In this document: positions 7,112 through 42,496 of the stretch, piece after piece
Layout of the letters: each line of letters opens with the position of its first letter
Numbering within the stretch: position 1 is the first letter of the stretch
Origin: Candidatus Aenigmatarchaeota archaeon
GTDB lineage: Archaea > Aenigmatarchaeota > Aenigmatarchaeia > QMZP01 > JAFGSV01
Direction: 5' to 3'
Length of the DNA: 64,000 bases
NCBI GenBank assembly: GCA_016934325.1
Contig: JAFGSV010000033.1
Location: 1,959-65,958, forward strand
Notes under the pieces: model-generated
The model's input: only the letters and a program-made list of their open reading frames with translations
Databases searched by the model: none
What the model was told of the DNA's origin: nothing
Position numbers and translations under genes: made by a program

Positions 7112-7237
7112 ATGCCTATCGGATGGTTTTCGTTATCGTCCATGGCATTTCGATCGCCCCATGCCCGGCGCAGCAAGATGCTGACTGAATCGGTCATCGG
7201 CAGCCATTTTTAAGCATTGACAGCTTTTATTATTCCT

Positions 7238-8032
7238 ATGGATTTCATTGAAGCTGTCGTCCTCGCCATCATCCAGGGCATCACCGAATGGCTCCCGATC
7301 AGCAGCGAGGGAGTCTCGAGCCTGGTGATGATAAACTTCTTCGACAAGAGCCTGGTCGAGGCGGTCTTCATGGCCGGCTGGCTGCACACAGGCACCCTGC
7401 TGGCGGCCATCGTGTACTTCTGGAAGGACATCAAGGAGATCATGCGCAACCTGCCCAAGTACTTCAGGAATCCGGCGGACAGGGAGGGCTATTCTGGGCT
7501 GACTAGCTTCCTTCTCATATCGACCGCTTTCACTGCCATCATAGGCGCTCCCCTGCTCTTCTTCAGCTTGGATAATATCGATTTCGCCGGCGGGAACGCC
7601 ATGGCTTTCATAGGCGTCCTGCTGGTCGTCACCGGGCTCATCCAGAAGTTCATCAGGCCCTCAAGCATCTTCGCCGGAACGACCAGGCTGAAGGACGCGG
7701 CGCTCGTCGGAATAATACAGGCTTTCTCGGTGCTGCCGGGGCTGAGCAGGTCCGGCCTCACGACATCGACCCTGCTGCTGAGGAAGCATGACCCCGAATA
7801 CGCCCTTAAGCTTAGCTTCCTCATGAGCATACCGGCAGTCCTCGTGGCCGAGATCGGGCTGTTGCTCCTGCAGAAGGTAACCTTCGACGTTTTCTCGCTG
7901 GTCGCCATCCTCGTGTCGTTCCTGCTAGGGCTCCTCACCCTCGGATCGCTGCTGAGGATTGCCCAGAGGGTGAACTTCGGCTATTTCTGCATCTTCCTGG
8001 GCGCCCTGAGCATGCTGGCCGTTTTGCTCTAG
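7238..8032 (+). CDS. uppP: Undecaprenyl-diphosphate phosphatase (BacA/UppP family)
   Basis: IIQGITEWLPISSEG and LPGLSRSGLT motifs. ATG 7238 preferred over TTG 7217. Confidence 0.9.
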   Translation: MDFIEAVVLAIIQGITEWLPISSEGVSSLVMINFFDKSLVEAVFMAGWLHTGTLLAAIVYFWKDIKEIMRNLPKYFRNPADREGYSGLTSFLLISTAFTAIIGAPLLFFSLDNIDFAGGNAMAFIGVLLVVTGLIQKFIRPSSIFAGTTRLKDAALVGIIQAFSVLPGLSRSGLTTSTLLLRKHDPEYALKLSFLMSIPAVLVAEIGLLLLQKVTFDVFSLVAILVSFLLGLLTLGSLLRIAQRVNFGYFCIFLGALSMLAVLL

Positions 8033-8063
8033 AATCTCGTCTCTGGTCTTGCGTTTGAAAGGT

Positions 8064-8654
8064 TCACAGCATTCTAAGAAGGGATATAGTTATCGACGCC
8101 ACAAGGGGCATCGTGACATTGTCCTCGATCCTTCTCCCCTTGATGAAATCGATAGCCTCTATTACATTCGCGAACAGCGATGCAAGTAATGCTTCAATTG
8201 GGGATACAAACAGGCTGGCCCCCAAAAAGGCGAACAAGAAGCCTGCCATGCTGCCCTCTAGGAATTTCTCGTCGCTGAGGGGGTGCCTGACCTTGCCGAT
8301 CTTGACGCCCACGAGAGGCGATATAGAATCCGCCAATACGAAGACCGTAATCGAAGCCAGAACTATGTCTGTCTCGAACAGGGCCATGGTCAGCAGAAGG
8401 CCGACGCCGAAGAAAAGGGCGCCCCTTCCCGGGATGCCGGCATCGATGTCATGCTGCCGCTCGAAATGGCGCAAGAACCAGCCAATTATCGGCAACGGCC
8501 TCTTCCTGCTGGCCGCAGATATCAGGAAACCGACGAGCACAACGGCGAGCACGATCCATACGTCAAGCACCCCGAGATAAATGCCCGCGACCACTAGCAT
8601 CCCCAGCACGAGATGGAAGATGTTCCTTCTCGTCTCAAGCGAAAAGCCTGTCAT
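8064..8654 (-). CDS. Polyprenol/dolichol/phytol kinase family (SEC59/DGK1-like, CTP-dependent) membrane protein
   Basis: RRNIFHL, DSISPLVG, KFLEGSMAGF, DNVTMP motifs; multi-TM. Confidence 0.8.
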   Translation of the reverse strand: MTGFSLETRRNIFHLVLGMLVVAGIYLGVLDVWIVLAVVLVGFLISAASRKRPLPIIGWFLRHFERQHDIDAGIPGRGALFFGVGLLLTMALFETDIVLASITVFVLADSISPLVGVKIGKVRHPLSDEKFLEGSMAGFLFAFLGASLFVSPIEALLASLFANVIEAIDFIKGRRIEDNVTMPLVASITISLLRML

Positions 8655-8679
8655 AAATAATCATCGTTGAATCCGTTAT

Positions 8680-9585
8680 TTAAAAGGCCTCGACAGCGGG
8701 GAATAGTTCTGAGATCGGTATTATCGGGATTCTGGACCTGCCGAACTTGAACTTGGTGACTCCCATTTCAATCAGCTGCTGGATCTGATCCTCATCGAGC
8801 ACCATTTCCTTGGATTGATAACATACCATCCTGTCAGCACTGATTCCGGAATAAAGATTATAAGATTTGTTCATCTCCGATATCCTTAGATAGTGGTCCT
8901 TGAGGCTTGGACAATCCCTTTGGCATGGATGATTCGCAATAACGATCGACCTGCCACGGTTTTCCGCACCGATTTCATCGAAAAACCCCTTATTGATCCT
9001 GCCGTCCGGCGTGAGCACATGCTCGGGTTTGATGACGACTTGATCATATATCCTGAACAAGTGCTGATATTTGCTGGGATTGAAGTAATGCATGATCAGC
9101 GAGCATACCTGAACCAGATTCTTGCCTCGGCCTCCATACCTTTTCCTGACAGCCTTCGCATACTCCTTGCTTGCCAGGACGACACCATTGCCGCATTCAT
9201 TCTCGGCCAGCATATCCAGATACTCGAAGGCATCATCCAAATTGTCATGTCTGACATCTGGAATAACGTTTGTCATGGTGGCGAAAATCGGAACTCCCAA
9301 CCTGTTCAGCCTCCTCGTTCTGGCCTTTATGAGGCCCTGTGTCTTCCCGCGCCAGTCTTCATTGCCTTCTGCGATGCATTCAGAAACGGTCTTGCCGCTC
9401 CTGAAAGACAAGTAATCCGAATCGAAGTTTTCACCGGCCTCGAAACTTCTGCCCCCGTTCATGTCGCAAGGGTATGATCCGAATCCGCAGACTCTGTACG
9501 TGTTGCCTTGCGAATCCTGATATTTCTTTCTAATCTTTTTTGTATTGAGCAGCACATGCGGGATCTCTAAAGTAATATCGGACAT
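8680..9585 (-). CDS. Hypothetical protein, possibly peptidase-U32-like (Fe-S binding)
   Basis: 301-aa ORF with lower GC than flanks; NGGR, ANHPCQRDCP..KDHY and KFKFGR motifs resemble U32-like proteins (recalled, not searched). Confidence 0.4.
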   Translation of the reverse strand: MSDITLEIPHVLLNTKKIRKKYQDSQGNTYRVCGFGSYPCDMNGGRSFEAGENFDSDYLSFRSGKTVSECIAEGNEDWRGKTQGLIKARTRRLNRLGVPIFATMTNVIPDVRHDNLDDAFEYLDMLAENECGNGVVLASKEYAKAVRKRYGGRGKNLVQVCSLIMHYFNPSKYQHLFRIYDQVVIKPEHVLTPDGRINKGFFDEIGAENRGRSIVIANHPCQRDCPSLKDHYLRISEMNKSYNLYSGISADRMVCYQSKEMVLDEDQIQQLIEMGVTKFKFGRSRIPIIPISELFPAVEAF

Positions 9586-9669
9586 ATTTTCATTACTTTA
9601 TTATGACAAAAATATATAAAGTTTATTCTAATCGGCGATATCCTTCATAGAAGATTAAAAGATGCCGAC

Positions 9670-10896
9670 TCATTTCTTTTTCTTCCTGAGGGCGGCGTTG
9701 ACTAGCCTCAGGGCGTTTATCCTGATGAATCCCCTGGCATCCCTCTGGTCGTATCCGCCGGCTATGTCCATGCTCGACTGCGCCTCGTCATACAAGGAGT
9801 TCGGCGATTCCCTTCCAGTGATTATGATGTTTCCCTTGTATAGCTTGGCTTTCACCTTCCCAGTGACGTACTCCTGGGTCTTGTCGATCATGGTCATGAG
9901 CAGCTCCATCTCCGGGGAGTACCAGAACCCGTAGTAGACGAGCTCCGCGAACTTGGGTATCAGCCCGTCCCTGATGTGCATGACCTCCCTGTCCATGGTC
10001 AGCCCCTCCAGGTCCCTGTGCGCCGCCAGCAGGACAGACCCCGCAGGGGTCTCATATACGCCCCTCGACTTTATCCCCACGAACCTGTTCTCGACCATGT
10101 CTACGCGGCTGATGCCGTTCTTGCCTGCAATCTTGTTGAGGTAGACGAAAAGCTCCAAAGGCGCCGTCTTCACCGTGCCGTCGTCCAGGTTTCTGACCTT
10201 CACGGGTATGCCCTGCTTGAATTCTATCTCGATCGTGGTCTCCTTGTCGGGGGCGTCCTTCGGGGACACCGTCAGCTCGAACATGTCGGGCCTGGGGCCC
10301 TGCGCGGGATCCTCGAGCATGCCGGCCTCATAGCTGATGTGCATGAGATTGGGGTCGGAGCTCCATGGCTCCTTCTTCGTGGCCTTCACGGGGATGCCGT
10401 GCTTCTTGGCGAAGTCTATCAGGTCGGACCTTCCCTGGAACCTCTGCAGGAACTCCTCGTCCTTCCATGGGGCTATGACCTCGACGCCCGGCATGAGGGT
10501 GTAATAGGTCAGCTCGAACCTGACCTGGTCGTTGCCTTTTCCGGTCGCCCCGTGAGCGACAACGTTCGCGCCTTCCTTCCTGGCGATGTCTATCTGCCTC
10601 TTGGCTATCAGCGGTCTCGCGAGTGAGGTCCCAAGCAGGTACCTCCCCTCATAGACGGCATTGGCCTTGATCGCATGGAAGATGAAATCCTTGACGAACT
10701 CCTCCTTCAGGTCCTCGACGTATACCCTGGAGGCTCCCGTTCTGAGGGCCTTCTTCCGTATCTCCCCGAAATCCTCCTGCTGGCCCACGTCGGCCACATA
10801 GGCTATGACGTCATAGCCCTTCTCCTTCAGCCACAGGAGGATGACCGATGTGTCAAGGCCACCGCTATAAGCCAGAACCACCTTTTTTCGGCCCAT
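9670..10896 (-). CDS. argG: Argininosuccinate synthase
   Basis: [55 protein letters not shown]. True start MGRKKVV at 10896. Confidence 0.97.
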
Positions 10897-10926
10897 GTGT
10901 CTAATATTTATAACGCTTATAAATAA

Positions 10927-10950
10927 ATTGTTGACCAATAATTCAACAAT
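10927..10950. promoter_or_regulatory. Inverted repeat ATTGTTGA-N8-TCAACAAT, candidate operator between divergent argG and argH
   Basis: Exact 8-bp arms at 10927-10934 and 10943-10950 in the AT-rich divergent promoter region. Confidence 0.5.
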
Positions 10951-11045
10951 AAATTGTATCTTAAGGGTAATATATTTAAATACAGTCTGTAAAATAACAA
11001 TGATTTTTGGAAAATGTTTCCATAAAATGAGGCAGGGATGATGAG

Positions 11046-12398
11046 ATGAAACTGTGGGAAAACGGCAACGGGGTCGGCGTTCATGAGAAGGTGGAGGAAT
11101 TCACCGCGGGCGAGGACATAAGGCTCGACCAGCAGCTGGTGGAGTGGGACGCCATCGGTTCCATGGCGCACGCGAGTATGCTGAACAAGATCGGCATAAT
11201 AACCCATTCGGAGCTCATGGACCTGAAGAAGGCCCTTGTCGATGTGGTGAACCTGCAAGAGAAGGGGAAATTCAGGATCGAGCTGAAGGACGAGGACGTC
11301 CACACGAAGATAGAGAACTACCTCACCGAGACCCTGGGGAACGTCGGGAAGAAGATACACACGGGGAGGAGCCGGAATGACCAGGTCATGGTGGACCTCA
11401 GGCTTTACACCAAGGAGAAGCTGCTCAAGATCGAGAAGAACCTCCTGACGCTGTGCAAGGAGATGGCAAGGTTCGCCGATTTGCACAAGGATGTGCCTAT
11501 GCCTGGCTATACGCATTTCCAGAAGGCGATGCCTTCATCCGTGGGCCTGTGGGCCATGGCTTACGTCGAATCTTTCCTGGATGACCTGAAGATGCTCAAG
11601 ACCGCCTACAGCATAAATGACCAGAACCCGCTCGGGTCTGCCGCAGGGTACGGGGTCCCGCTCGACCTGGACAGGGACTTGACTACGAAGCTGCTCGGAT
11701 TCGGCTCCTTGCAGAACAACGTGCTTTATGTCCAGAACAGCAGGGGCAAGATCGAGTCCATTGTGCTTTCGGCGCTGATGCAGATCATGCTTGACCTCGG
11801 GAAGCTCAGCAATGACGTGATACTCTACAGCACGGACGAGTTCGGTTTCTTCAAGATAGGCGAGAGGTTCAGGACAGGAAGCAGCATAATGCCGAAGAAG
11901 AGGAATCCGGACATACTGGAGCTTGTCAGGGGCAAGGTTAACATAATCACTTCGTCCCTCAACCAGGTGATCGGCACCATAAAGACCCTGCCGTCCGGAT
12001 ACCAGAGGGACCTGCAGGAGACCAAGGAGCCCCTCATTAAGAGCCTCGGGGTGACGAACAACTCCCTGGAGATGGTGGTCTTGGCGGTCAGGGACATATC
12101 CGTCAGCAGGGAAAGGCTCATCCAATCCTTCTCGTCGGGCATTTTCGCTACGGACGAGGCCTTCAAGCTCGTTTCCCAGGGCATTCCCTTCAGGGATGCT
12201 TACAAGCACGTCGACTACAATTTCCAGAAGTACAAGAAGGAGTCGCCGGAAGAGATAATCAAGAAGAGGAAGTACAAGGGGACCACAGGCGACCTTGGCA
12301 TCCTCAACATAAAGAAGAAGATCGACCGGGAGATGGCCGGCTCAAAGGCCCGGGAGAGGGAGTTCAAGAACGTCATAACGAAACTGATGAAGGCCTGA
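11046..12398 (+). CDS. argH: Argininosuccinate lyase
   Basis: [43 protein letters not shown] motifs. Confidence 0.96.
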
Positions 12399-30342: not shown

Positions 30343-30442
30343 GCCGGGGTGGCAGAATCTGGCCAATGCGCCCGCCTCGAATGAGGCTGAAGGGAAAGCG
30401 GGTGTCCTCACGGACGTGCAGGTTCAAATCCTGCCCCCGGCG
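30343..30442 (+). tRNA. tRNA-Ser(CGA) with ~15-nt intron at canonical position 37/38 (30382-30396)
   Basis: Acceptor GCCGGGG/CCCCGGC, discriminator G, anticodon stem CCCGC/GCGGG with loop CT-CGA-A|A, long variable arm GTCC-TCAC-GGAC, T-arm GCAGG-TTCAAAT-CCTGC. Confidence 0.9.
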
Positions 30443-30559
30443 CTGATATCTTTTTCTCATGAAAGTTAGACCAATGCGATTGGTGTATCGAAATATTGAA
30501 TCCCACCTTTCCCCCAGACTATGGAAGGTTATTTAAGTAAGCCTCTAAAAGAAAGAATC

Positions 30560-30820
30560 ATGTCCGCAGAAGCCTGCTGCGAGTTCGATGTGGTGCCGCC
30601 CCCGGGGATGTCGCCAGGAGACGTTGGATCTTATATTCGTAACGTGTTGCATGGGAATTTGGAAGGGCTGGAAAATAGTCCTGTTTCTGTAACATATATG
30701 GGGTCATTCCCCTTCAGAAAAGCCAGGATAAGGGTGACAGGAAGCGATAATCAGGATCATATCGGGCCGGCGATTATTTCCGGCTTGCAGGCAAGCTACT
30801 GGGACATAGACAGTAGATGA
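30560..30820 (+). CDS. Hypothetical protein (~86 aa)
   Basis: TATTTAAG ~25 nt upstream of ATG 30560; no recognised motif. Confidence 0.4.
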   Translation: MSAEACCEFDVVPPPGMSPGDVGSYIRNVLHGNLEGLENSPVSVTYMGSFPFRKARIRVTGSDNQDHIGPAIISGLQASYWDIDSR

Positions 30821-30870
30821 CCCGGTTTTGAGCGAATATCATATGTATATCGGGGGGAATGTCCAAGGCG

Positions 30871-31140
30871 TTACAGCAATCGCCTTTGTGGTGGCATGGG
30901 AAGGTTTCTGCAATCGCCACATATTGTCACTGCATATTCGATTTCATTCAATTCTTCCCCGTTCATGGTACTTTTTATCGCTTCAATGTCAATAATATTG
31001 GACCCGCTTATCCCGAGGACCTGTGCAATATATGTTCTCAACTGTGCATGATCGCTAAACGCAGGGATATCACCGCCACTCACAAATGCTACTGTGTTAT
31101 CTATTCCTATGCTTCCCATGCGACTTTGATAACCGCACAT
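30871..31140 (-). CDS. Possible hypothetical protein
   Basis: 89-aa ORF, plausible composition, no motif. Confidence 0.3.
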   Translation of the reverse strand: MCGYQSRMGSIGIDNTVAFVSGGDIPAFSDHAQLRTYIAQVLGISGSNIIDIEAIKSTMNGEELNEIEYAVTICGDCRNLPMPPQRRLL

Positions 31141-31293
31141 TTATTCACCACTTAGTAACTACATTATGATAATATTTTATAATCCCTCCTTAATAAAGAT
31201 TTGCATTGTCACAGTAGATGGAAATGACAGATTTGTCCAATAACGCCGTTATGAGCTTATGATGCTATTTAATTACGAAATTCAAAAGTACGT

Positions 31294-31923
31294 ATGTTCG
31301 TGACTCTCAATATCCGTGACTTGAAAAGCGGCAGGACCGGCAGATTCCCGTTGAAACCTCTTGAAAAGATTCTCCCGCTGGGAAAGACACCGGAGATAAT
31401 CGATGTTGATATAAAATACAGTCCTCCTTCGGGAAAGGTTCCAGGAGATATAATCAAAATTGATAAACCCGAAGTCTATTTTTACGGCACGCTGCTGATA
31501 AGGCTTTCATCAAAAGACAGAAGAGAGTTCATCAGAGAGATAGAGATAAGATTCGATAATAGTAAACACGACGGCACTGATATACACCTCAATTTGGATG
31601 AAATATACCGTCTGGGGAAGCACATAAAGGATAAATTGCCTCGAAGTGAAAAAATCGGCGAGTTTCATATGACTCCACTGGGTGATGATAAGACACCGAG
31701 AATGATAGATTTGACCGTGATTACTTCTTTTGGTAAGGGTACGCACATGAGAATTGGTTATTATCCCCACAAAGATGACATAATTATAGCCAAGGCTGTC
31801 AAAGACTTCATGGAAAAGGTAAAGCGAGGAACTTTAATCAAGCGTGATGAAAAACGAATGGAGGTTCTCAACAAGAAATATTACAAATCCTTCACGAGAC
31901 GTAAAGCGAATGAAGTGAAATAA
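31294..31923 (+). CDS. Hypothetical protein (209 aa)
   Basis: Long ORF in AT-rich DNA; no motif recognised. Confidence 0.6.
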   Translation: MFVTLNIRDLKSGRTGRFPLKPLEKILPLGKTPEIIDVDIKYSPPSGKVPGDIIKIDKPEVYFYGTLLIRLSSKDRREFIREIEIRFDNSKHDGTDIHLNLDEIYRLGKHIKDKLPRSEKIGEFHMTPLGDDKTPRMIDLTVITSFGKGTHMRIGYYPHKDDIIIAKAVKDFMEKVKRGTLIKRDEKRMEVLNKKYYKSFTRRKANEVK

Positions 31924-31953
31924 TGGTGGTAGAACTATCGTAAATCTGTAAAG

Positions 31954-32310
31954 TCAATGTTTACTCCAATAATCCCATACTCTCTTTATTTCATCGACCC
32001 AGAATCTATATCTTTGTCCCCATTTGTTGAAACACCCTAATTCAAACGCCAATTCAAAAAATCCATTGCCAGGCATTTTTGTGTCTTTTCTCACAACCAC
32101 AGCCGTAATTAGAAGACCTGTCTTTTTACGGTCTGCCCTGTTTATATCATCGAGAATTTTTCCTATTTCATGATATCTGTCATCTGGATTTTCATGCCCG
32201 AGACCCACAAGAGACATCAGTTCTTCATAATAGATTATACCCTTTATGTTATCAGATTTCCCTTTACGGGCAACTTCCTTTATTTTGTTGTAGATAACAT
32301 CATTTACCAT
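31954..32310 (-). CDS. Hypothetical small protein, putative nucleic-acid-binding domain
   Basis: YYEELMSLVG...EIGKILDDI...LITAVVVRK...PGNGFF pattern, HTH-like; family name not confidently recalled. Confidence 0.55.
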   Translation of the reverse strand: MVNDVIYNKIKEVARKGKSDNIKGIIYYEELMSLVGLGHENPDDRYHEIGKILDDINRADRKKTGLLITAVVVRKDTKMPGNGFFELAFELGCFNKWGQRYRFWVDEIKRVWDYWSKH

Positions 32311-32397
32311 TCATTTCATAGTTTTCGCAAAGACTAATAAAACCGACGTTTAAACGGTTTTGTAGAAATCATCAATAACAGCGTTACGAGACATTTA

Positions 32398-32811
32398 TTA
32401 CTTCTTCTTTGTCACTTTGTCAAATTCTTCGTCTACATTCCCCTCATATGCAACATCAGTAATTTTACTGATGTTAACGATTTGCTCTGCGAATATTAAA
32501 AATACACTCAACGCAACGAGTATTATGAGAAATATGTCCCCTAATGAAATCACTAAACCAGGGAAAACAACGTTGATTAACAAGTATGAATCAATTATTA
32601 TGCCTAGAACTAAAATACTCCCAATAAAAATTTGATAACGCATACCGCTTTTCAGTGCATTGTAATGTTGCTTATTTTTCTCAATGTGCTCAAAATTTTC
32701 AACTATTATCCTTCTAACGTTCTCCAAGGTCTGCAAATACTTGGTTGCAAGAAAAATAAGTATCGCCAATATGAAACTGTAGTATGTGGCGAGTACCTCT
32801 GCTCCAGCCAT
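32398..32811 (-). CDS. Hypothetical membrane protein (~3 TM)
   Basis: 137 aa, hydrophobic segments at the N-terminus and in the C-half. Confidence 0.55.
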   Translation of the reverse strand: MAGAEVLATYYSFILAILIFLATKYLQTLENVRRIIVENFEHIEKNKQHYNALKSGMRYQIFIGSILVLGIIIDSYLLINVVFPGLVISLGDIFLIILVALSVFLIFAEQIVNISKITDVAYEGNVDEEFDKVTKKK

Positions 32812-32885
32812 GATAAGTGAATGTTTTCTGGATTAAAAAGTTTCTCTATTAAAATTCGAACATGATATATCATTAGGATGACTTT

Positions 32886-33413
32886 ATGGAAAAAGTGAAG
32901 AAAGTGGGTTTGGATGATTTCATCGAAGAAAACCATAACCTTCTGACAGTTTTTGGGGTTTTTGCAGCATTGACAGCATTGTTCTCAAGAATAGGAGAAA
33001 GTGGAAATGATGTGATAACGATATCCATTTACATGGCATCAATGTCTTTTCTCATGCTGATTATGATAGCTTGGGTAATATGGACAAAATTTCCAAAAAG
33101 CGAGAAAGCAAGTGATACCATTAAGATATTCGAATTTCTTTACTTGGGTCTGCTTTTGTCAATGTCATTATTTGTTTTACTGACTTACAAAAATACAATC
33201 AAGTCATTTTCATTTCTTATCTTCTTTGCACTATATACCACTATAACTGTGAAACTTATTGGTCAAAGAGAGATTCCTAAGAAAGTCAGAAAACTGATGA
33301 AAAAACATAAGAAAATAAGAACATTTATTGCGGTTACGGTAGCTCTCATGTTCATACTGGTTGTATTCATATTAGCTCACTTCTCATCTCAGGCTTTCAA
33401 CCAATATTTTTAG
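32886..33413 (+). CDS. Hypothetical membrane protein (~5 TM)
   Basis: 175 aa with repeated hydrophobic stretches. Confidence 0.6.
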   Translation: MEKVKKVGLDDFIEENHNLLTVFGVFAALTALFSRIGESGNDVITISIYMASMSFLMLIMIAWVIWTKFPKSEKASDTIKIFEFLYLGLLLSMSLFVLLTYKNTIKSFSFLIFFALYTTITVKLIGQREIPKKVRKLMKKHKKIRTFIAVTVALMFILVVFILAHFSSQAFNQYF

Positions 33414-33486
33414 CCAGATATTCCGATAGTTTTATTATTCCTGTATCTAATTTATGAATAGTGGGCTACTGCCATAGCCCAGAAAG

Positions 33487-33870
33487 ATGTCGGTGATTGA
33501 TATAGACGGAATAGAATATAAATATATGTCTGTATATCAGGAGGAATTGAAGCACAAAGAATATTTAACGATCCTTCAGGCTGCAATAACGGTCATCATG
33601 ACATTTTTGGTGTTGTTAGCTATGGCGGTAATAACGAGTCCAGAAAGAATTGACGTAGGAACGATTTCACTGATAGGATTAGTCTCCGTAATGGGAATGA
33701 TAATAACGGTTCTACTAATACACTTTCTCGGTTTAAAACCCCTCCAAGAAAAAATACCGAAGAGGAAAGGTCAAGCATGGTCTATAATTCTCATTATTAT
33801 CATATTCCTAATACTTATTTTTCTGCTCGTTACATATGGTTCTTTGCCAGCATCAAGAACAACGCCTTGA
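33487..33870 (+). CDS. Hypothetical membrane protein (~3 TM)
   Basis: 127 aa with three hydrophobic stretches. Confidence 0.55.
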   Translation: MSVIDIDGIEYKYMSVYQEELKHKEYLTILQAAITVIMTFLVLLAMAVITSPERIDVGTISLIGLVSVMGMIITVLLIHFLGLKPLQEKIPKRKGQAWSIILIIIIFLILIFLLVTYGSLPASRTTP

Positions 33871-33971
33871 TTGCTTATAAATAAGTTATAAGGGGGATAT
33901 ATGATAAAATAAGGGTAAAGTATTTAAATATATAAGTTAAAAATATCCTATACATAATAAAAGGTACCCTT

Positions 33972-34943
33972 ATGGAATTAAAAATAAAAGTGACATCAAA
34001 AAATGTAAATGTCGTTGCCAGGTTCCTAAAAGAACTGGCATATGCAGACACATCAATTACACCTGTTCCTTCAGAAGAATCAGAAATTGAGGAAACAGCT
34101 AATTACATGACTAAAAATGATTTCAATTTAAAGGATTCTCTTCTTAAAAAACCTGAAAAACCTGAAATTACTTTATCGGGCGATATAGTTAAAAATGAAA
34201 CCACAACAGAAGTTGGAAATTGGGGTCTTTTTAATAGCTTTTTTCCCATAAAGGCGGTTCTTAGAGTTTTGATAAATAGAGAAAATGAGAATGAGAAATC
34301 TTTGACTTTAAGAGAATTGGTTGAAATATGCAGAATCGAATTTTCAAAAGGCAACCTTAGAAAACTGAGAGGTTTGCCCAGTAATTTAAGTAAAGAGAGT
34401 TCTATTGGTAGGCTTGTTTGGCATTTCATTGGACCAGCTCGGGAAATGGGATTCATTGTTATTGAAGGTGAAGTCAAGGGAGAAAAAGTTGATTATATTC
34501 CAATTTCGGATAAGGATTGGAATAAGGTTAGATTATTCCCAACGAAGGATGGTGCAAAATTTGCATTACTGGAAAATAACGTTTTTGATAAAGGTAGTAG
34601 CGATCAGGTTCTTACTATTGAAGAGAGGAAATGGTTAATGGATTATCTGAAAAAAATAGAAAAGAGGGGTCATAAAGAATTCACTATATTGAAAAAAGTT
34701 TTCGAATTCCTTTCTTCTGGACATGATGGTAAAGAGGATTTGAGGAGTTGGTTTAGAAATAACTCGGCTTTTTTAAATTATATTAAGAAGTCATCTTCCA
34801 AAAGCGGAGAAGCCCTGAATAATCAGCTAGATAATTTGTCAATTACATTCGCTGCAAGTAAATTGGCTTTGCTTAGAGAATTTGGTCTTGTTAGTAATAA
34901 AAGAGGTGACTATTCAATAATTGGTGATTTGAATGAGCTTTAA
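33972..34943 (+). CDS. Hypothetical protein (323 aa), possible tandem winged-helix DNA-binding protein
   Basis: AT-rich promoter upstream; LTLRELVEI, AREMGFI and C-terminal LLREFGLV..KRGDYSI resemble wHTH elements; overlaps next gene by 11 nt. Confidence 0.6.
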   Translation: MELKIKVTSKNVNVVARFLKELAYADTSITPVPSEESEIEETANYMTKNDFNLKDSLLKKPEKPEITLSGDIVKNETTTEVGNWGLFNSFFPIKAVLRVLINRENENEKSLTLRELVEICRIEFSKGNLRKLRGLPSNLSKESSIGRLVWHFIGPAREMGFIVIEGEVKGEKVDYIPISDKDWNKVRLFPTKDGAKFALLENNVFDKGSSDQVLTIEERKWLMDYLKKIEKRGHKEFTILKKVFEFLSSGHDGKEDLRSWFRNNSAFLNYIKKSSSKSGEALNNQLDNLSITFAASKLALLREFGLVSNKRGDYSIIGDLNEL

Positions 34944-37254
34944 AGATGACGAAGTTGATATAGAGAGAGGAGAAATAAAATTTCATACATTTGGAACTCT
35001 CAAATCACTAACTCAGTGGGTTAATACACATGAAGATGGATTTCCAGAATGGATTAAAAATGTTAGATCTGCATATTGCAGATTAAATCTTCCAGAAAAA
35101 CATAGAGCTGCTGTAATTCTTATCAAGGATAAAGACAATTTAGGTCCAGCAAGATTAGGCATTTTAGATGTTGGGGGAGCTACTGAAGAAGATGTAAATT
35201 ATTGGTCTGTTTGGCAAGATCCCGATGCTTCTTCGAGAGGGGGACAAAAAAAGGAAGAAACACAAGGCAATGGTGGGAAAGCGTATATGTACAAGCTTTT
35301 CAACGGTCCTTCGTACTTTATGGGTGTAAATAATAACATTGTAAATCGGATAGGATTTATCGGTGAACATGCTTCACTTGATAGAGGAAATCCTGGTTAT
35401 ATTCCAAGTGAAAAGGAAGCGAAAAATTTCAAAATATCTGATTGGGAAGATTTATTGATTTTTGAATTACAGAAATTTGGAACAAACATAGCGGAATTAC
35501 CCACTGAAGTGAAAGATATTATTTTTGATAGAAAATCTTATACTATCGTCAATGGAAGCGAACCAAGAGATTGGAACCAAAAAGATATTAAATTTTTTCT
35601 GAAAAAAATATCCAGACAATCACAATCAGTTCTTGCTCTGAATCAAGTGAGATTTTATGTTTTACATAATGGAAGGCTTTTGAATGAGGGTAAACCCTTA
35701 AAACTTGAAGAAATTGAACCGCACCCTAAATTTAAAGATCCAATCATCTATGAAATACCAAAAATTGTACTAAAAAAGGATGGAAATCAGGTTAATACGA
35801 CCAAATCATCATCTGGGATACATAAACTTGGGCGTATCATTCTATACACATCGAAAGAAAATATGTCAGCATCCTATGTAACTTTGAAACCCAGATGGGT
35901 GGTTACTTATAAAACCCAATATGAAGTTGTTGGGCAAAAAACAATTCCTGAAATTATTTCTGCACCTGGTATTCATTTTATTTATGCTGTTGTTGAACTC
36001 GACGCTTTGAGTCCAGATTATGTAAATTTAGGTAGAAAGAGACCAAATCCAGGATCTCTTATTGATGCTGTAGACCAATTTCTATCTGAAAAGATACGTG
36101 ACTTGGCAAAAGAAATAAATGAATTGAATAAAGAGGAGCTTAGTAAACTATTCTTAGATGAAATCCAAAAAGAAAATAAATATCTCAATGAAATAAAAAA
36201 TCGTTTTTTGCCTAAAGGTGGACTACTTGAAGTGGTAGATACAGAGGGTGATGGTGAAGGTTCGAAAAATAAGAAAAAGGTGAAACCAATAAAATGGGGC
36301 AAAGATGTACATAAAATTGAAACTCAATCATATGCTCTAAAAATTGGTGTTTCAGTACCTGTTAATCTAAAGGTATTATTGAAACCAAGTGCAAAGGATT
36401 TGCACGATAACCCAATCCCATCACCAAACTGGGAATGGAAATCTGATAATAAAAATATAATTGAAATTGACAATGATGGTAATTGCATACCAAAATCCAA
36501 AGGTTCTTGTAGAATTTGGGTATCGATACCAAAAACAAGTGCAATATCAGCACCAATAGAAGTGGAAGTTTGGAAAATCAAAGAGATAATTTTATCGCCA
36601 AGAAATTTAGAAATTAGTACTGGTTCTATCAAAATGATTACAGCCCAAGTTACAAATGATGAAGGAGAGAAATCTGCTGATGTAATATTAAAATGGAAAC
36701 ATGATGCAGAAAATGAGCGAATTGTAAAAATTAGTCCTAGAGGGTACGTATTTGGAAATTCTGTAGGAAAAACGAACGTTTTTGCTGAATCAGAAGTTTC
36801 ATGTACAAATCCTTGTGAAGTAGAAATCGTAAAGGGGGAGAATAAAGAAGGCAAAGGGAGTGGAGTCCCTCAACTACTGCTTACTGAAAAGGACATAGAT
36901 CCATTTACAGGTGAAATAAGACCCAGTGACCCAGAAGCAGCTGCACTATGGCAAGAACCTTGGGATGTTCAAAATAACATATGGTGGTTGAATTTGCAGA
37001 GCAAAGATGCATCGTTTGCTTATAGGAATATAAAAGAAAATCCGCATTTATGGAGATTGTTTCATGCAAAAATTCTTGTCGATATGATGATTCAGGTACA
37101 TATGCAAGAAGAGTATAATAAAAAAATTCAGGAAAAGGCTTACTGGTCTGACCATAAATATTTTTATGATAGAAAATATGTTGAGCTGTGTCAAGTTATG
37201 TGGGAAAAATTAAGTCAATACGTTCAGTTCGGAATGGAGGAAGGAAATGACTGA
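34933..37254 (+). CDS. GHKL (Hsp90/MORC-like) ATPase with two C-terminal Ig-like (Big_2-type) repeats
   Basis: Bergerat-fold motifs EWIKNVRSAY (N-box), ILDVGG (G1), QGNGGK (G2); two repeats WEWKSDNKNIIEIDNDG..IPKSKGSCRIWV and LKWKHD..RIVKISPRG.VFGNSVGKTNVFA. No signal peptide. Confidence 0.65.
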   Translation: MSFKDDEVDIERGEIKFHTFGTLKSLTQWVNTHEDGFPEWIKNVRSAYCRLNLPEKHRAAVILIKDKDNLGPARLGILDVGGATEEDVNYWSVWQDPDASSRGGQKKEETQGNGGKAYMYKLFNGPSYFMGVNNNIVNRIGFIGEHASLDRGNPGYIPSEKEAKNFKISDWEDLLIFELQKFGTNIAELPTEVKDIIFDRKSYTIVNGSEPRDWNQKDIKFFLKKISRQSQSVLALNQVRFYVLHNGRLLNEGKPLKLEEIEPHPKFKDPIIYEIPKIVLKKDGNQVNTTKSSSGIHKLGRIILYTSKENMSASYVTLKPRWVVTYKTQYEVVGQKTIPEIISAPGIHFIYAVVELDALSPDYVNLGRKRPNPGSLIDAVDQFLSEKIRDLAKEINELNKEELSKLFLDEIQKENKYLNEIKNRFLPKGGLLEVVDTEGDGEGSKNKKKVKPIKWGKDVHKIETQSYALKIGVSVPVNLKVLLKPSAKDLHDNPIPSPNWEWKSDNKNIIEIDNDGNCIPKSKGSCRIWVSIPKTSAISAPIEVEVWKIKEIILSPRNLEISTGSIKMITAQVTNDEGEKSADVILKWKHDAENERIVKISPRGYVFGNSVGKTNVFAESEVSCTNPCEVEIVKGENKEGKGSGVPQLLLTEKDIDPFTGEIRPSDPEAAALWQEPWDVQNNIWWLNLQSKDASFAYRNIKENPHLWRLFHAKILVDMMIQVHMQEEYNKKIQEKAYWSDHKYFYDRKYVELCQVMWEKLSQYVQFGMEEGND

Positions 37255-37981
37255 TAAACAACAGTTAACTTTGAATGAAAAAGTACTATTAGCTGCATTT
37301 GCATTACAAAAAGGTGATATTAAAAATAAATTTACAGCTGAAGACCTTCTCGTTGAAGTGTGGCAGCAAGATAAAGGTGCATTTGGTTTGAGAAATTATG
37401 AGAACAAATATCCAGATTCAAATAAATTATTCACAAAATTAGATGGGAAAGGTGGACTGGTTAGGAAAGGTTTATTGAAAAAAGTTTCAGAAAGAACATA
37501 TATATTAACTCCAGCTGGAATGTCTCTATCAAATTCAATAAGACCTGTTGACGAAATAACTACAACAAAGGTTAATAGAGAGCTTTATGAAGAGATTAAA
37601 AAAATCATTAATCATCCAATTTTCTCTGAATGGCTAAAAGATTCAAATAAGCCCGAAAAATTCAGAGATGCCGGTTGGTTTTGGGGTATTGCACCAGGAA
37701 ATCCCCCAAGTATTGTAGCAGAAAGGTTAGCGAATATAGAACAAAATTTGATTGAGGCTAAGAAAAAAACTGCTGAATGCGGAGGGAAGCTTGTATTAGA
37801 TACTAGGGGTATGGATCAAAATGTTAAACTTGCTCTTACAACAAAGGGTAACGCAAATATCGACAGTGATAAATCGAAGATTTATCTGGATTCCAAGGAC
37901 ATAAATAAATGTATAGAATTTCACGAATTGCTAAAAAAACGGTTTGAAAAAGAGTTAAGTATTATGCTGAAGAAAAAATGA
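37247..37981 (+). CDS. Hypothetical protein with N-terminal winged-helix domain (244 aa)
   Basis: FTAEDLLVEVW...GLVRKGLLKKVSERTYILTPAG wHTH wing pattern; overlaps upstream gene by 8 nt; stop abuts MTase stop. Confidence 0.6.
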   Translation: MTDKQQLTLNEKVLLAAFALQKGDIKNKFTAEDLLVEVWQQDKGAFGLRNYENKYPDSNKLFTKLDGKGGLVRKGLLKKVSERTYILTPAGMSLSNSIRPVDEITTTKVNRELYEEIKKIINHPIFSEWLKDSNKPEKFRDAGWFWGIAPGNPPSIVAERLANIEQNLIEAKKKTAECGGKLVLDTRGMDQNVKLALTTKGNANIDSDKSKIYLDSKDINKCIEFHELLKKRFEKELSIMLKKK

Positions 37982-39112
37982 TTATTTCTTTAGAACAAGT
38001 ATTCTGTCAACTTTTGTGGCATTCCCCCTTTTTTCTCCCCATATTCTTGATACTTTCGGGTTTCCATTATTTTCATCGTAAATAACATCATTGATTATGT
38101 CTTCAACTTTAGAAAATCCTATTTCTTTAGCACATCTCTCCCATACGCTTTCCGCTAAATTGATGGTGTCTGTGGATTCTTTCTTTTTTACATCTCCTAT
38201 TACAAGTACAGCTTTCCCTTCGGGTTTTAGTACCCTTTCAAATTCTCGAAGAACATCATTCATGAAGTTACAATATTTATCAATAGATTGGGTCACGAAT
38301 AGTTTTTTATCCACTTCTACACCATCTTTTCCAAGAAACCATAACCTAATCCAGTTGAATGTTCCATAAGTAATTAAACGAGTATATGGAGGTGAAGTTA
38401 CAATTAAATCAACAGAGGAATCCTTTATACGACTCATATTCCTTGCATCCTGCATGTATATCTTTCCTTTATTACTACATTTTTGGTAGCATCTTTCTAG
38501 TTTTTCATTCAGGATTCTGAAAACATCCCTTTTCGGTTTTCTGAGATGATGCTCTTTTATGTAATTCTTCACGTAATTGGGTGACATCGAAAATGTGTTG
38601 GGCATTTGAATAGAAAGATAACCCTTTGAGCCACCGTGCATTATTCCGAGAACCATTGCCGTGATAAAGATGTCTACATTACTTTTCTTCCATTTCAATT
38701 CCTTTTTGAGATACACGAGCTGGTTTAATGTATACTCACCAAAAATCATTTTGATTTTCTTATCAACATGCTTTGTGTCTATCTCTTCTTTTTTGTAATT
38801 TTCCTTTAAGCTTTTAATCCTACTTATTATTCTCCCTTTCTGAGGCACAGAAGCCTTCGATCTCGAAAGTACTGCTGCTAATATATTTCTATCATTTCCT
38901 ATCGCTTTTCTTTCAAGAAGACAACCTTCCAGAACCGTAGTTCCCCTGCCAGAAAATGGATCTAATACTAAATCACCCTTTTTCGAATATTTATCAATGA
39001 AGTAATTCGGAATTGATGGTGGATACATTGCCATATAACTACATATGGAATGTAATTTGTTTCCCATATTTTTCGGATATATCTTCCATTCAGGACAATT
39101 TATTTCTCCCAT
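37982..39112 (-). CDS. Amino-DNA methyltransferase (likely N4-cytosine; motif I before motif IV, alpha-type order)
   Basis: VLDPFSGRGTT (motif I) near N-terminus, DLIVTSPPY (motif IV) later; LHSICSYMAMYPP N-terminal block; GGAGTAGT SD-like upstream. Confidence 0.88.
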   Translation of the reverse strand: MGEINCPEWKIYPKNMGNKLHSICSYMAMYPPSIPNYFIDKYSKKGDLVLDPFSGRGTTVLEGCLLERKAIGNDRNILAAVLSRSKASVPQKGRIISRIKSLKENYKKEEIDTKHVDKKIKMIFGEYTLNQLVYLKKELKWKKSNVDIFITAMVLGIMHGGSKGYLSIQMPNTFSMSPNYVKNYIKEHHLRKPKRDVFRILNEKLERCYQKCSNKGKIYMQDARNMSRIKDSSVDLIVTSPPYTRLITYGTFNWIRLWFLGKDGVEVDKKLFVTQSIDKYCNFMNDVLREFERVLKPEGKAVLVIGDVKKKESTDTINLAESVWERCAKEIGFSKVEDIINDVIYDENNGNPKVSRIWGEKRGNATKVDRILVLKK

Positions 39113-39125
39113 ACTACTCCCTATT

Positions 39126-39335
39126 TCAAAAAGTATAATCGATTCTTATTTTCCAATACTTTTTGTTCCCGATTTTTTTTGTCACCACATATTTTCTTTT
39201 ATGCAATTGCTCCAAGTTTTTGTTTGTAGTTGCCCAGGACGTACCAGTTTTTTTTGTCATCTGAGTTGTTGTAAGTGGTCGTGAAGCATTGTATAAAATA
39301 TTCAATATTTTTCTTTCAATATCCGTGAAAGGCAA
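39126..39335 (-). CDS. Small winged-HTH transcriptional regulator (controller-like)
   Basis: IERKILNIL...LTTTQMTKKTGTSWATTNKNLEQL.KRKYV; TTG start 5 nt after upstream stop. Confidence 0.7.
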   Translation of the reverse strand: MPFTDIERKILNILYNASRPLTTTQMTKKTGTSWATTNKNLEQLHKRKYVVTKKIGNKKYWKIRIDYTF

Positions 39336-39340
39336 CCTAC

Positions 39341-39631
39341 TTATCGATTTTCTTGAAGATATTCTATTTTTAATGTTTTTTCACCCCTTTCATTCGGCAA
39401 AATCTTTAAAGTAAATTTTACTTTATCGTCCTTTGTAATTTTCATTGTTTCAGATATTTCTTTAGGAAATCTTATCAGATATTGACTACCATCATAAACT
39501 ACTTTCCTCGTTTTTTCTATGATTTCTGGTTCTGGTTCAATAATTTTTTTAATTTGTTCGGGAATTGTAGAGTAATCTGTATTGAAAAATTCTTTATCAT
39601 CCTGACTGACTTTATTTTTTTTCTTTACCAT
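39341..39631 (-). CDS. AbrB/MazE-like DNA-binding protein
   Basis: RKVVYDGSQYLIRFPKEISETMKITKDDKVKF swapped-hairpin pattern. Confidence 0.7.
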   Translation of the reverse strand: MVKKKNKVSQDDKEFFNTDYSTIPEQIKKIIEPEPEIIEKTRKVVYDGSQYLIRFPKEISETMKITKDDKVKFTLKILPNERGEKTLKIEYLQENR

Positions 39632-39644
39632 AATTAATATATGA

Positions 39645-39761
39645 TTCGTACTATTTATATAAATTTCGTACTATTTTTACTAAATTTTACGATTGGTGAG
39701 TGATAAACGTACGAAAAACGATAACTTTATAAATATGTACACCAAATAATAATCGTACGAA
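39645..39761. repeat. Four TTCGTAC motifs (two direct, two inverted) and five GTAC cores upstream of the AbrB-wHTH-MTase operon
   Basis: TTCGTACTATTT at 39645-39656 and 39665-39676; GTACGAA at 39709-39715 and 39755-39761; extra GTAC at 39737-39740. Confidence 0.75.
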
Positions 39762-39780
39762 TATTATTCATAATATTTTC

Positions 39781-39815
39781 CAAAGGGGGAGAAAGTTAGA
39801 GCCTTTCCCCCTTTG
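39781..39815. other. Hairpin CAAAGGGGG...CCCCCTTTG immediately upstream of the transposase
   Basis: 9-bp perfect outer stem plus inner AAAG/CTTT pairing. Confidence 0.55.
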
Positions 39816-39829
39816 GGTGGAGTATCCGT

Positions 39830-41410
39830 ATGCAGGAAGACACCACAATTAAGGAATTGAAGGATGAGATTAATAAGCTTTTCAGTCAGATGGGAGAATA
39901 CCCACTCGACCTTGCGGTATTCCTTTCACGGTTGAGACTTGAGCCAATCCGTGGGCTAATCGATAATAGGTACAGTGTTAGTGAAAAGGATGGACGCATG
40001 AAGCATAATCCCATGTCCATAATAAAGGCACTTATGCTGAAGGATTTGCGTGGCATAAAGCATTATTCCCAGCTTCTGAATCGTCTGTCAAGGCATCCTG
40101 AAGAGGCGGAAATTCTGGGATTCAATACGAAGATGACTAGGCAGTCAATGAGCGTTTTCACCTTGGGAAAGCTCACTCAGGAAATCGAAGACCTCATCGT
40201 GGTTGCAGTGGATCATATAAGAGATAAGGCGAAAGAGACTGGAAAGCTTCTGGATGTCTATTTCTTGGATGAAAGCGGTACATACAAAGGAAAGTCTACT
40301 CGGACCATCGAAAGAAGGAAGAGCGAAAAGTCGGGCGAGGTTGTCAGAGTGCTGAAAAGAGAGATATTCCCGAATCTCGACTTTCCCCTCAAGTCGAAAG
40401 CCAAGTATGATAAAATGCACTTTCTTGATCTGCTGGCTTATGTCGCATACGAGAACGTGTGTGCAAATCAAGGCTCGAAGCTGATGAAGGAAGACGCCAA
40501 TTTCAACGGCAGAGTTCCCCATTCCAGGACGCTTATGGGCTACTTGAAACTTCTTGACAAGCGTGAGATAGAGCTAATGTTCATCAATTCTTTCGAAAAA
40601 GTGTTCAAGATAGCTAAGATGCAGGGATTCTTCAACAGGGAAGTCGACGTGGCGATAGACTTCACGGACTGGCTGTACTACGGCGACAAGAACGATCTCG
40701 GAGTCATGGAAGGTCAGACCAAGCAGGGAACGTCCCACAGGTTCAGGTTCGCCACCATCAAGATAGTCGAAAAAAACAACGATTTCGTCCTGATGGCATT
40801 ACCCGTGTTCAAGTTCAGCGATAGAAGGGAAGTAGCGAAAAGACTCATAAATTACGCCAATTCGAAGGTGAACGTGAGGTACTTCTACGTCGACAGGGAG
40901 TTCTTCTCCTCCACCTTCATAAGCCTCTTCGAAGAACTCGGAATAAAGTACATAATGCCAGCCATCAAGAACGAGAAGGTGGTGAAGCTTATCGAGAACC
41001 GCAAGTCGGATTTCATAGCCTACACGTTCACTGGAACGGCGAGGAAGTATGACGCCAAGATGACGCTCGTCGTGAGGAAGGATGAGGAGGGAAAGGACGT
41101 CTGTTTCGCTACGAACGTCCCCATCCTGAGATTAGTATGGTCGAACCTTTTCGAGCTTTACGGAAAGAGATGGGGCATAGAGACCGCATACAGGGTCGCA
41201 AAGCACGAGTTCCGACCCAACACTACGTCCAAGAACCACAAGATAAGGCTCTATTATTTCCTGTTCTCATCGCTGCTTTACAACATCTGGGTAATCGTGA
41301 ACTCCATAGTCAGCGTCTACCTGTTCAGGGAAGTCGTGGATTACAGGGTCATAACGGCGAAGCTGTTCATGAAGAAGTTCTACCAAGCTTATACGGAAAC
41401 CATCACTTAG
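39830..41410 (+). mobile_element. DDE transposase, IS4 superfamily / ISH3-like, with N-terminal extension
   Basis: VDVAIDFTD (D1), FYVDREFFS (D2), YGKRWGIETAYR (YREK/E) intact; 526 aa. No terminal inverted repeats identified. Confidence 0.85.
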
Positions 41411-41591
41411 CCTCTTCCAGAAGCTTTCTGAAAAACTTCTCTATCGAAGAGCCCCCCGGGCAGAATGTGTGACCTTTGCTACTTGTTACGTGGATTGTCC
41501 CGTCCTTGTGCTCGAAAACCCTGATGCCCTTGACGTAAATCGCCTTCCCTTTGCTCTCCACTACCTCCGTGTAGAACGGCTTGTCGACCAT
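41403..41591 (-). CDS. Small hypothetical protein (62 aa)
   Basis: Plausible codon usage; 3' end overlaps transposase stop by 8 nt. Confidence 0.4.
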   Translation of the reverse strand: MVDKPFYTEVVESKGKAIYVKGIRVFEHKDGTIHVTSSKGHTFCPGGSSIEKFFRKLLEEAK

Positions 41592-41754
41592 AATCAGGCT
41601 TGGTTTCCGGCTTTAATAATCAAATCGTTGGACAATTCCAACTACTGTGTCAATGGGCACGGGCGATCAGGGAGAAGGCTGGATTACAAGGGTAGGTATT
41701 TGGATATTCCCGGGCGTTCGAGAATAAAAAATTTACTTCCCTAGTATCAATACC

Positions 41755-42423
41755 ATGATTGATTACTGGATCCGGGAAGGGGATGAGAAATTGCTGGGGT
41801 ACGCCTTAAATGCCGATGCTCGCCCCTGCCACCCGGGGTACCTTACCGGGGACATCCAGAACGATTGCACCGGCTGGCTATCGAATGTGAATGACTATTT
41901 CATTCTCGCCCGGTGGAAGCTTTGGAAGCCTGGTAGGGACTCGGAGCAGGAATACGATTTCGCCCATGTCAAGAAGGCGGCCCTCTACCCCCAGGGCGTC
42001 GTCTTCACGCCGTTCACGGCCAACGAGATCCAACTTGACTATAAGAGCAGGTTGGTGCACAGGAAGGAGCGGATCGAGCTTGTCGGAAGCGACAGCGATG
42101 GCTTCGTACAGAGATTCTTCCCGACGCAAGAGCAGTTGTTCAGCAAGCAGGAAACCAGGGACCATCACCCCTTTCTGTACCGAAGCGCCGATGAATTCAT
42201 AGTGGAGGTTCCCGGATCATTCCCGATCTCGGCGCTCGACAGCTTGCTGAGGGCTGAGGGCGTGCTGATGGACGAGTGCGTCAGGGGATCGAAGTACAAG
42301 GGGATAATCAGCATGTGCAGCAGAACCGTGGTCTTCACCGGCTGGCCCCATCATACGGAAGAGTCCATGAAGAACATGCCGGAATTCATCGCAGCTTTCG
42401 CCGATAAAAACAGCATCTTCTGA
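41755..42423 (+). CDS. Hypothetical protein (222 aa)
   Basis: Long ORF with host-like codon bias; no motif recognised. Confidence 0.55.
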   Translation: MIDYWIREGDEKLLGYALNADARPCHPGYLTGDIQNDCTGWLSNVNDYFILARWKLWKPGRDSEQEYDFAHVKKAALYPQGVVFTPFTANEIQLDYKSRLVHRKERIELVGSDSDGFVQRFFPTQEQLFSKQETRDHHPFLYRSADEFIVEVPGSFPISALDSLLRAEGVLMDECVRGSKYKGIISMCSRTVVFTGWPHHTEESMKNMPEFIAAFADKNSIF

Positions 42424-42444
42424 AGCCGCGGCTGGGCCAAATGG

Positions 42445-42493
42445 TTAAACAAGAGAAAAAGACAAAAAATAAAGGAATGGGGGTTTTGTCCCC
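42445..42493 (-). terminator. Probable terminator of tuf
   Basis: On the minus strand GGGG-ACAAAA-CCCC followed by a long T-rich run, directly after the tuf stop. Confidence 0.55.
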
Positions 42494-42496
42494 TTA

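Follow-up and report, generated by a model that had tools for sequence, protein, structure and literature searches.

A candidate four-site operator array between a regulator-methylase operon and a divergent transposase gene in an archaeal cargo transposon

Closest described systems

C proteins of restriction-modification (R-M) systems such as PvuII, Esp1396I and Kpn2I are small regulators that head the R-M operon and bind repeated palindromes (C-boxes) upstream of their own gene, a form of control which times expression once a mobile R-M system enters a new cell. Archaeal auto-repressors such as Lrs14 and LrpA, which are chromosomal and use one or two sites, occlude the TATA/BRE region or the start site. 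In Tn10 (TetR/tetO) and Tn3 (TnpR/res), imperfect palindromes lie between divergent transposon genes, and a single protein represses in both directions. Among archaeal mobile elements, the AbrB-like protein C68 of the Sulfolobus plasmid-virus pSSVx (PDB 3o27) binds between divergent promoters at two sites, one of which covers the BRE (PMC5569661), and Stf76, a small winged-helix (wHTH) protein of pSSVx, is reported to bind two sites in its own promoter (PMC4027180). Insertion sequences (IS) of the ISH3 family have CRGT termini, target duplications of 4-5 bp and lengths of 1.2-1.5 kb; no cargo appears in the table of the family (De Palmenaer et al. 2008, PMC2266710). According to a 2019 survey of integrated archaeal mobile elements, passenger-gene transposons were undetected in archaea (PMC6563490); in a 2026 survey of archaeal IS, the word "passenger" is absent and "cargo" appears only in the reference list.

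The window analyzed here, meaning the whole 64,000-nucleotide stretch of DNA (C15:1959-65958 of a source genome of 1.24 Mb, 54% GC and 35 contigs), contains a repeated motif inside an ISH3-type transposon, between a regulator-methylase operon and a divergent transposase gene. As with C68, an AbrB-like protein of an archaeal mobile element is accompanied by a repeated motif between its own promoter and a divergent one. However, the motif bound by C68, TATG(C/GG)TTTTC, is unrelated and is present at two sites, as compared to four in the present array; C68 is encoded on a plasmid-virus and is not co-transcribed with a wHTH protein and a methylase, whereas the corresponding 96-aa protein of the window belongs to a transposon and its homology to C68 is marginal (E 0.08). 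C proteins have an Xre-type helix-turn-helix, usually gate an endonuclease and act at bacterial sigma-70 promoters, in contrast to the wHTH and AbrB-like proteins, archaeal TATA/BRE promoters, four sites and downstream methylase found here. The 69-aa wHTH protein is of the HTH_24/MarR-type by Pfam rather than Xre-type, and no nuclease was recognizable among the open reading frames (ORFs) and Pfam matches of the convergent cassette or the cargo; with a different fold and no gated nuclease, the system does not fall within the C-protein family.

The mechanism proposed below is reminiscent of Lrs14 and LrpA, in that operators over the BRE and the TATA-to-start stretch would block TBP/TFB or polymerase, but these regulators differ in their chromosomal location and in having fewer sites than the four present here, and the match of the 69-aa protein to Lrs14 is below cut-off. 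Repeated imperfect palindromes in a divergent intra-transposon spacer are shared with Tn10 and Tn3, which differ in their protein folds; TnpR is also a recombinase and TetR is ligand-responsive, whereas the present element is archaeal, of ISH3 type, and carries defence-like cargo. Its CAGT ends, its 5-bp duplication and the best transposase score, which is to the ISH3 model, are ISH3-like. Unlike described ISH3 elements, it is 10,436 bp long and carries cargo together with its own regulators, and its transposase scores below the NCBI curated cut-off. As compared to the 2019 statement, an ISH3-type element bounded by terminal inverted repeats (TIRs) and target site duplications (TSDs) here carries ~9 kb of cargo plus regulators. 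The element is ordinary in kind, in a setting that is unusual and apparently undescribed; an auto-regulatory operator array alone would be routine, and value is added by the transposon setting.

Sequence and promoter context of the array

The array lies in an intergenic spacer of 198 bp (39632-39829), flanked on one side by the ATG of the 96-aa gene (39631, reverse strand) and on the opposite side by the transposase gene on the forward strand. Five GTAC tetramers begin at 39648, 39668, 39709, 39737 and 39755, all within 117 bp, and four of the five are part of the heptamer TTCGTAC, which is found on the forward strand at 39645 and 39665 and on the reverse strand at 39709-39715 and 39755-39761. 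A first-pass annotation made from the sequence alone had described a GTAC-core array of two TTCGTACTATTT copies 20 bp apart, two inverted copies and a fifth GTAC. Each of these components was confirmed, the two TTCGTACTATTT copies being the first two TTCGTAC sites. The accompanying claim that GTAC exceeds its expectation in such AT-rich DNA also held: the 117-bp array has a GC content of 24.8%, and dinucleotide-preserving shuffles of a 148-bp AT-rich spacer contained 0.585 GTAC on average, with five or more in 0 of 5000. In 45 of 2000 shuffles of the window spacer, some 7-mer containing two or more G/C reached four copies, a test which is only moderately strong because the shuffles retain the motif's own dinucleotides. 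Across the 1.24-Mb genome TTCGTAC occurs 53 times, and the only copies that form pairs less than 500 bp apart are the four of the array.

Each of the four array sites is an imperfect TTCGTACGAA palindrome. Candidate operator site 1 (39645-39657; TTCGTACTATTTA) has its heptamer at −14 to −20, counted from the A of the AbrB-like start codon, and the heptamer of candidate site 2 (39665-39677; TTCGTACTATTTT) is at −34 to −40. Candidate site 3 (39703-39716; ATAAACGTACGAAA) carries TTCGTAC on the reverse strand with the core CGTACG, and candidate site 4 (39745-39768) is the near-perfect 24-bp palindrome AATAATAATCGTACGAATATTATT, likewise centred on CGTACG. The fifth GTAC (39737-39740) lies outside the repeated motif and is probably a chance occurrence or a degenerate half-site. 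A scan allowing up to two mismatches detected no operator-like sites before the ATPase cassette of the same element.

The array had been placed upstream of an AbrB-like/wHTH/methyltransferase (MTase) operon. This position was verified for the operon, which is on the reverse strand, and the array is at the same time 5' of the divergent transposase gene (39830-41410, forward strand). The first operon gene (39341-39631, reverse strand) encodes the 96-aa AbrB-like protein (SpoVT/AbrB swapped-hairpin-like, with weak matches); the gene of the 69-aa winged-helix protein (HTH_24; 39126-39335, reverse strand) follows after 5 nt, and that of a 376-aa DNA methyltransferase (N6_N4_Mtase, SPPY motif; 37982-39112, reverse strand) after a further 13 nt, gaps consistent with the three genes forming one operon. 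The 69-aa protein matches PF13412 with 27.3 bits (E 2.7e-6), which passes the gathering threshold of 21.9, and has a weak, below-cut-off NCBIfam match to Lrs14 (E 8.8e-5). A Pfam scan of the 96-aa window protein gave no match. PF04014, the SpoVT/AbrB-type MazE domain, was matched weakly by one of six homologues (E 0.0025), and a profile of the six homologues gave weak PDB matches to 7xi6 (E 0.03) and 3o27 (E 0.08). An AlphaFold (AF2) model from the six sequences was poor (pLDDT 55) and as such not suited to a fold search, with elements in the order strand-strand-helix-strand-strand. From these weak matches, an AbrB-like assignment of the 96-aa protein is plausible. The MTase belongs to a large family, with 3256 proteins above the search threshold. 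Its SPPY motif (motif IV) suggests N4-cytosine methylation.

In homologous loci the wHTH genes directly follow the AbrB-like genes. A very basic ORF of 40-51 aa is found between the wHTH and MTase genes at L185 (11560-11682), L005 (470-625) and L169 (2051-2203); the window is without this ORF, and its wHTH protein has a longer C-terminal wing instead.

A putative palindromic archaeal TATA box (TATA1; 39654-39663, reverse strand; TTTATATAAA) can be read directly from the sequence upstream of the operon, its centre ~27 nt from the AbrB-like ATG. Under the established spacing rule for archaeal promoters, an mRNA with no leader, or almost none, is predicted from this distance. TATA1 is flanked by sites 1 and 2, with site 2 on the BRE position of the operon promoter (P1) and site 1 between TATA1 and the predicted start. 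A second, TATA-like box (TATA2; 39726-39735; TTTATAAATA) lies between sites 3 and 4 and recurs, together with its flanks, in the G033 locus. TATA2 probably serves a second promoter (P2) directed towards the transposase gene; the box is palindromic, and the direction of P2 is not readable from it. If used, a rightward P2 start would fall at the centre of the site 4 palindrome. Farther along the spacer, a hairpin with a 13-bp stem (39780-39816, forward strand; CCAAAGGGGGA...TCCCCCTTTGG; folding ΔG −34.6 kcal/mol, z −5.1) ends 13 nt before the transposase ATG, just 5' of the SD/ATG region. The hairpin is kept upstream of the homologous transposase genes of L169, L175 and L177, is absent from L167 and L186, and may attenuate or insulate transposase expression.

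The cargo transposon and its relatives

The window contains just two copies of CAGTAGWTGGAAWTGWC, inverted relative to each other, at 31212-31228 and 41631-41647, with 0 occurrences expected by chance. These 17-bp repeats, which correspond to the left (CAGTAGATGGAAATGAC, forward strand) and right (CAGTAGTTGGAATTGTC, reverse strand) TIRs, mark the element ends with the terminal motif CAGTAGWTGGAAWTG, and the 5-bp direct repeat TGTCA immediately precedes the left one (31207-31211) and follows the right one (41648-41652). As described for ISH3 ends, the element begins with CAGTAG... at 31212 on the forward strand and at 41647 on the reverse strand, inside the 5-bp TGTCA duplication. The TIRs enclose the transposase gene and the entire low-GC island (~33% GC, as compared to 54-58% outside). 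The segment 31212-41647 is a 10,436-bp ISH3-type cargo transposon, and the array is its proposed internal control region. The 526-aa DDE transposase, encoded divergently from the operon, has its best match to NF033541, the NCBI ISH3 model (E 1.5e-42), with a score of 145.8 bits that is below the cut-off of 225, and is 24-28% identical to haloarchaeal plasmid IS copies. A search of the genome for further copies of the IS found this single copy. In addition to the transposase, the element encodes ~13 ORFs of at least 69 aa. The cargo of ~9 kb includes a cassette with a MORC-like ATPase (defence-like), the MTase operon with its regulators, and several small membrane proteins.

Two other delimitations of the element were rejected. 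The hairpin at 39780-39816 was considered as the left IS end and ruled out, as the terminal repeats lie 8.6 kb and 1.8 kb away from it and the related block of G033 is absent as a whole from an empty site (see below). A longer terminal repeat, CATTG(T/A)CA, was only apparent and is accounted for by the 5-bp target duplication, seen once on each strand. Between the transposase stop and the right terminal repeat there is an unannotated 62-aa ORF (41403-41591, reverse strand). A tRNA of ~100 nt lies outside the element at 30343-30442, extended by an intron or a long variable arm; it is detected with Rfam (47 bits) and missed by ARAGORN. In relatives, the counterpart of this tRNA and the EF-1alpha gene are only ~120 bp apart, which makes 30456-42496 a 12-kb variable hot spot that also contains extra segments beyond the transposon (30456-31206 and 41653-42496).

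The transposase recurs divergently beside homologous AbrB-like/wHTH pairs at 32-50% identity, a divergence similar to that of the regulators themselves. The G033 element likewise carries the terminal motif at each of its two ends, and in G057 the motif lies ~200 bp past a fragment of the transposase. In a sister genome, G043, the site is empty (G043:C7 25732-25737), and positions 9059-16030 of L185 (G033:C5) are missing between flanks of 88-89% identity; the missing block comprises the transposase, tRNA-Gly(TCC), array, regulators and MTase. No clean target duplication was found for the G033 element, and ~100 bp with repeated ACGCATCA separate its cargo-side terminal repeat from the flank. A second transposase family, IS5-like (312-344 aa), is divergently paired with AbrB-like/wHTH modules in L167, G007, G016 and G082 (transposase genes at L167 221-1255, L225 6096-7127, L226 5005-5943 and L227 6084-7094). 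The presence of this second family indicates that the regulator-operator module is portable, and it seems common to unrelated transposon families. The overall layout of the window is matched by L186 (G057:C32) at 3757-11207, where an MTase-wHTH-AbrB operon has a GHKL ATPase cassette converging on it and an ISH3-like transposase gene divergent from it; the methylase of L186 is a C5-cytosine methylase, so that the MTase slot is exchangeable.

Conservation of the array and alternative explanations

AbrB-like/wHTH pairs were gathered by way of the MTase family, by a profile search and by a search of same-order genomes. Single-sequence searches of genome contigs with the MTase or the transposase gave no matches, and the wHTH protein alone matched only itself; profile or alignment queries were needed to recover related loci. 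Upstream of homologous operons, where the first-pass annotation had suggested that the motif be sought, a similar four-site array was found at five other loci, in the form TCGT(A/C)C. The six TCGTMC-array loci are thus the window, G033 (L177/L185), a metagenome contig (L167/L031), two loci of G058 (L217 and L222) and G007 (L218). Sites of the form T-CGT-(A/C)-C are located at about −130, −90, −45 and −10 from the AbrB ATG in the six loci; those of the window are at −128, −82, −40 and −20, and the offset of its proximal sites (−40 and −20, as compared to −45 and −10 in relatives) indicates a promoter geometry that differs from that of the relatives. Site 3 was aligned with the −82 to −98 site of the five other loci, and site 4 with the −125 to −147 site of other array loci. 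In all six, the distal copies are forward and the proximal copies inverted, bracketing TATA-like boxes. The motif thus lies at the regulator's own BRE/TATA or start region in the window, with a similar layout in the five others. For G033, none of 2000 shuffles contained four copies of a heptamer.

In two regulator clades that are more distant, other motifs occupy the equivalent place. L169 and L175 have GTAATACTAC three times, with the distal copy inverted in L175, and G057 has a TTTAGTACTAAA palindrome plus split half-sites. The regulators of L169 and L175 are 74% (AbrB-like) and 77% (wHTH) identical and share GTAATACTAC, and their MTases are unrelated; those of L167 and G033 are 52% and 56% identical, respectively, both with TTCGTCC, and again the MTases are unrelated. 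The three motif types therefore track three regulator clades, regardless of MTase and transposase type. At the position following the conserved recognition-helix Trp, the wHTH proteins have I, V or A where the motif is TCGTMC, K where it is GTAATACTAC and R where it is TTTAGTACTAAA, a small sample which hints that the winged helix may read the motif and which constitutes a small natural specificity series. Two unrelated transposase families accompany the TCGTMC array, and the array also occurs where no transposase is visible next to it; it therefore belongs to the regulators. The GTAC repeats of the window are likely to be four operators for the two small repressors encoded downstream, and the GTAC within the sites looks incidental.

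In the first-pass annotation the array was taken as a set of binding sites for the wHTH/AbrB regulators and also, more speculatively, as a methylation switch, in which GTAC (or a longer word) would be the target of the SPPY methylase and operator methylation would alter repressor binding or promoter strength, giving epigenetic feedback. A switch of this kind would be consistent with co-transcription of the MTase from the array promoter, with an SPPY motif suggestive of N4-cytosine methylation and with five GTACs in 117 bp, far in excess of chance, and some R-M systems, such as the CfrBI type, are regulated by target sites embedded in promoters. However, at the base that decides whether GTAC is formed, 14 of 26 site readings have A and 12 have C, and single arrays in G007 and G058 mix the two. 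With A and C about equally frequent at the central base, the conserved word is TCGTMC rather than GTAC, and GTAC arises as a by-product of TTCG-TA-CGAA. The MTase of L005/L175 shares 70% identity with the window MTase and that of L167 shares 59%, and the arrays of these loci are without GTAC; more generally, no GTAC is present in the promoters of homologous operons encoding MTases of 75%, 73%, 70% and 59% identity. The closest MTase relative (L001, 75%) has neither the regulators nor the array. Conversely, the MTases encoded behind identical arrays can be unrelated (375 vs 456 aa, and 371 vs 288 aa), a C5-MTase fills the same slot in G057, and in both G058 loci a secreted-protein gene follows the regulators, with no MTase before the contigs end ~770 bp past the AbrB-like gene, even though one of these two arrays has GTAC-type sites. 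Genome-wide, GTAC is not avoided, and with an O/E of 1.18 it is the most over-represented of the 16 palindromic tetramers. Because the motif follows the regulators and not the methylase, and because GTAC is not avoided, the methylation switch is unsupported and very unlikely; a tempting epigenetic story is removed by the comparison. The binding-site part of the annotation is instead favoured by the four-site arrays at homologous regulator pairs, while the feedback part is not supported, given the degenerate base and the GTAC-free arrays before MTases of 59-70% identity. Among the palindromic tetramers of this genome (G000), CTAG was strongly depleted (O/E 0.53) and GATC mildly so (0.79).

The position of the array, adjoining the transposase gene within a transposon, brings to mind the divergent tnpA-tnpR spacer of the Tn3 family, which carries repeated recombinase sites, and the repeats might accordingly be subterminal or res-like sites for transposase binding or recombination. 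This explanation is highly improbable: distances of 1.9 kb and 8.4 kb separate the array from the element ends, the array does not resemble the terminal repeats, it accompanies both ISH3-like and IS5-like transposases as well as loci with no neighbouring transposase, and in G033 a complete tRNA-Gly intervenes between the array and the transposase gene. No recombinase gene was seen among the element ORFs, six of which were scanned against Pfam. The fixed positions of the sites relative to the TATA boxes and the regulator ATG in six loci likewise argue against iterons or an origin inherited from a formerly autonomous plasmid or virus, and against sites for a host chromatin protein or global factor. 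The array region is AT-rich with short direct and inverted repeats, and in L001 a related MTase cassette lies beside an integrase and a D5-type primase, as might be expected for such an ancestry; yet no Rep or primase gene was seen among the element ORFs and no other cluster of the motif exists in the genome, leaving these explanations extremely unlikely. Chance clustering in low-complexity AT-rich DNA has the low GC content of the spacer as the sole point in its favour and is of virtually negligible probability, given the absence of five GTACs from all 5000 shuffles, the only TTCGTAC cluster in 1.24 Mb, and the conservation of both motif and positions at five other loci.

If the repeats are operators for the downstream-encoded repressors, the four imperfect palindromes would be occupied by the 69-aa winged-helix protein, by the 96-aa AbrB-like protein or by both, in the form of a dimer or tetramer. 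Protein binding to the sites, the resulting repression, the orientation of P2 and the protein that reads the motif are predicted here from sequence. At P1, a repressor on the BRE and the TATA-to-start stretch would block TBP/TFB or RNA polymerase and hence the pre-initiation complex, a block which would auto-repress the AbrB-like/wHTH/methylase operon. The array lies between the divergent transposase gene and the operon and thus may control both. With sites 3 and 4 occupied, the transposase may likewise be repressed from P2, the predicted start of which is overlapped by site 4 and the transcript of which would cross the hairpin leader into the transposase gene. On entry into a naive cell, the promoters would stay active until enough repressor had accumulated, producing an early pulse of methylase, and perhaps of transposase, followed by shut-off, much as C proteins time the expression of R-M systems.

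A tentative extension, somewhat more doubtful than probable, is that the TCGTMC array and the AbrB-like/wHTH pair form a portable hub of DPANN cargo transposons, ISH3-like and IS5-like, which represses transposase and cargo operon from a single spacer. If so, a newly arrived element would fire its transposase and protective methylase once and then silence itself, and the hub would be an establishment switch for archaeal defence-carrying transposons. The array provides a precise cis-element and two candidate repressors for a module that recurs in DPANN mobile defence islands; to our knowledge, there is no genetic system and there are no regulatory data for these organisms. Four TCGTMC sites around TATA boxes also provide a search handle for more elements.

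At one further pair of loci, L171 and L169, the operons are near-identical up to a breakpoint at TGTAATACTAC, exactly 59 bp from the AbrB ATG. Upstream of this point, the transposase and hairpin are present in one locus and are replaced by unrelated DNA in the other. The L005 contig starts at the same base, a pattern suggestive of recombination, or of an assembly break, at the distal operator.
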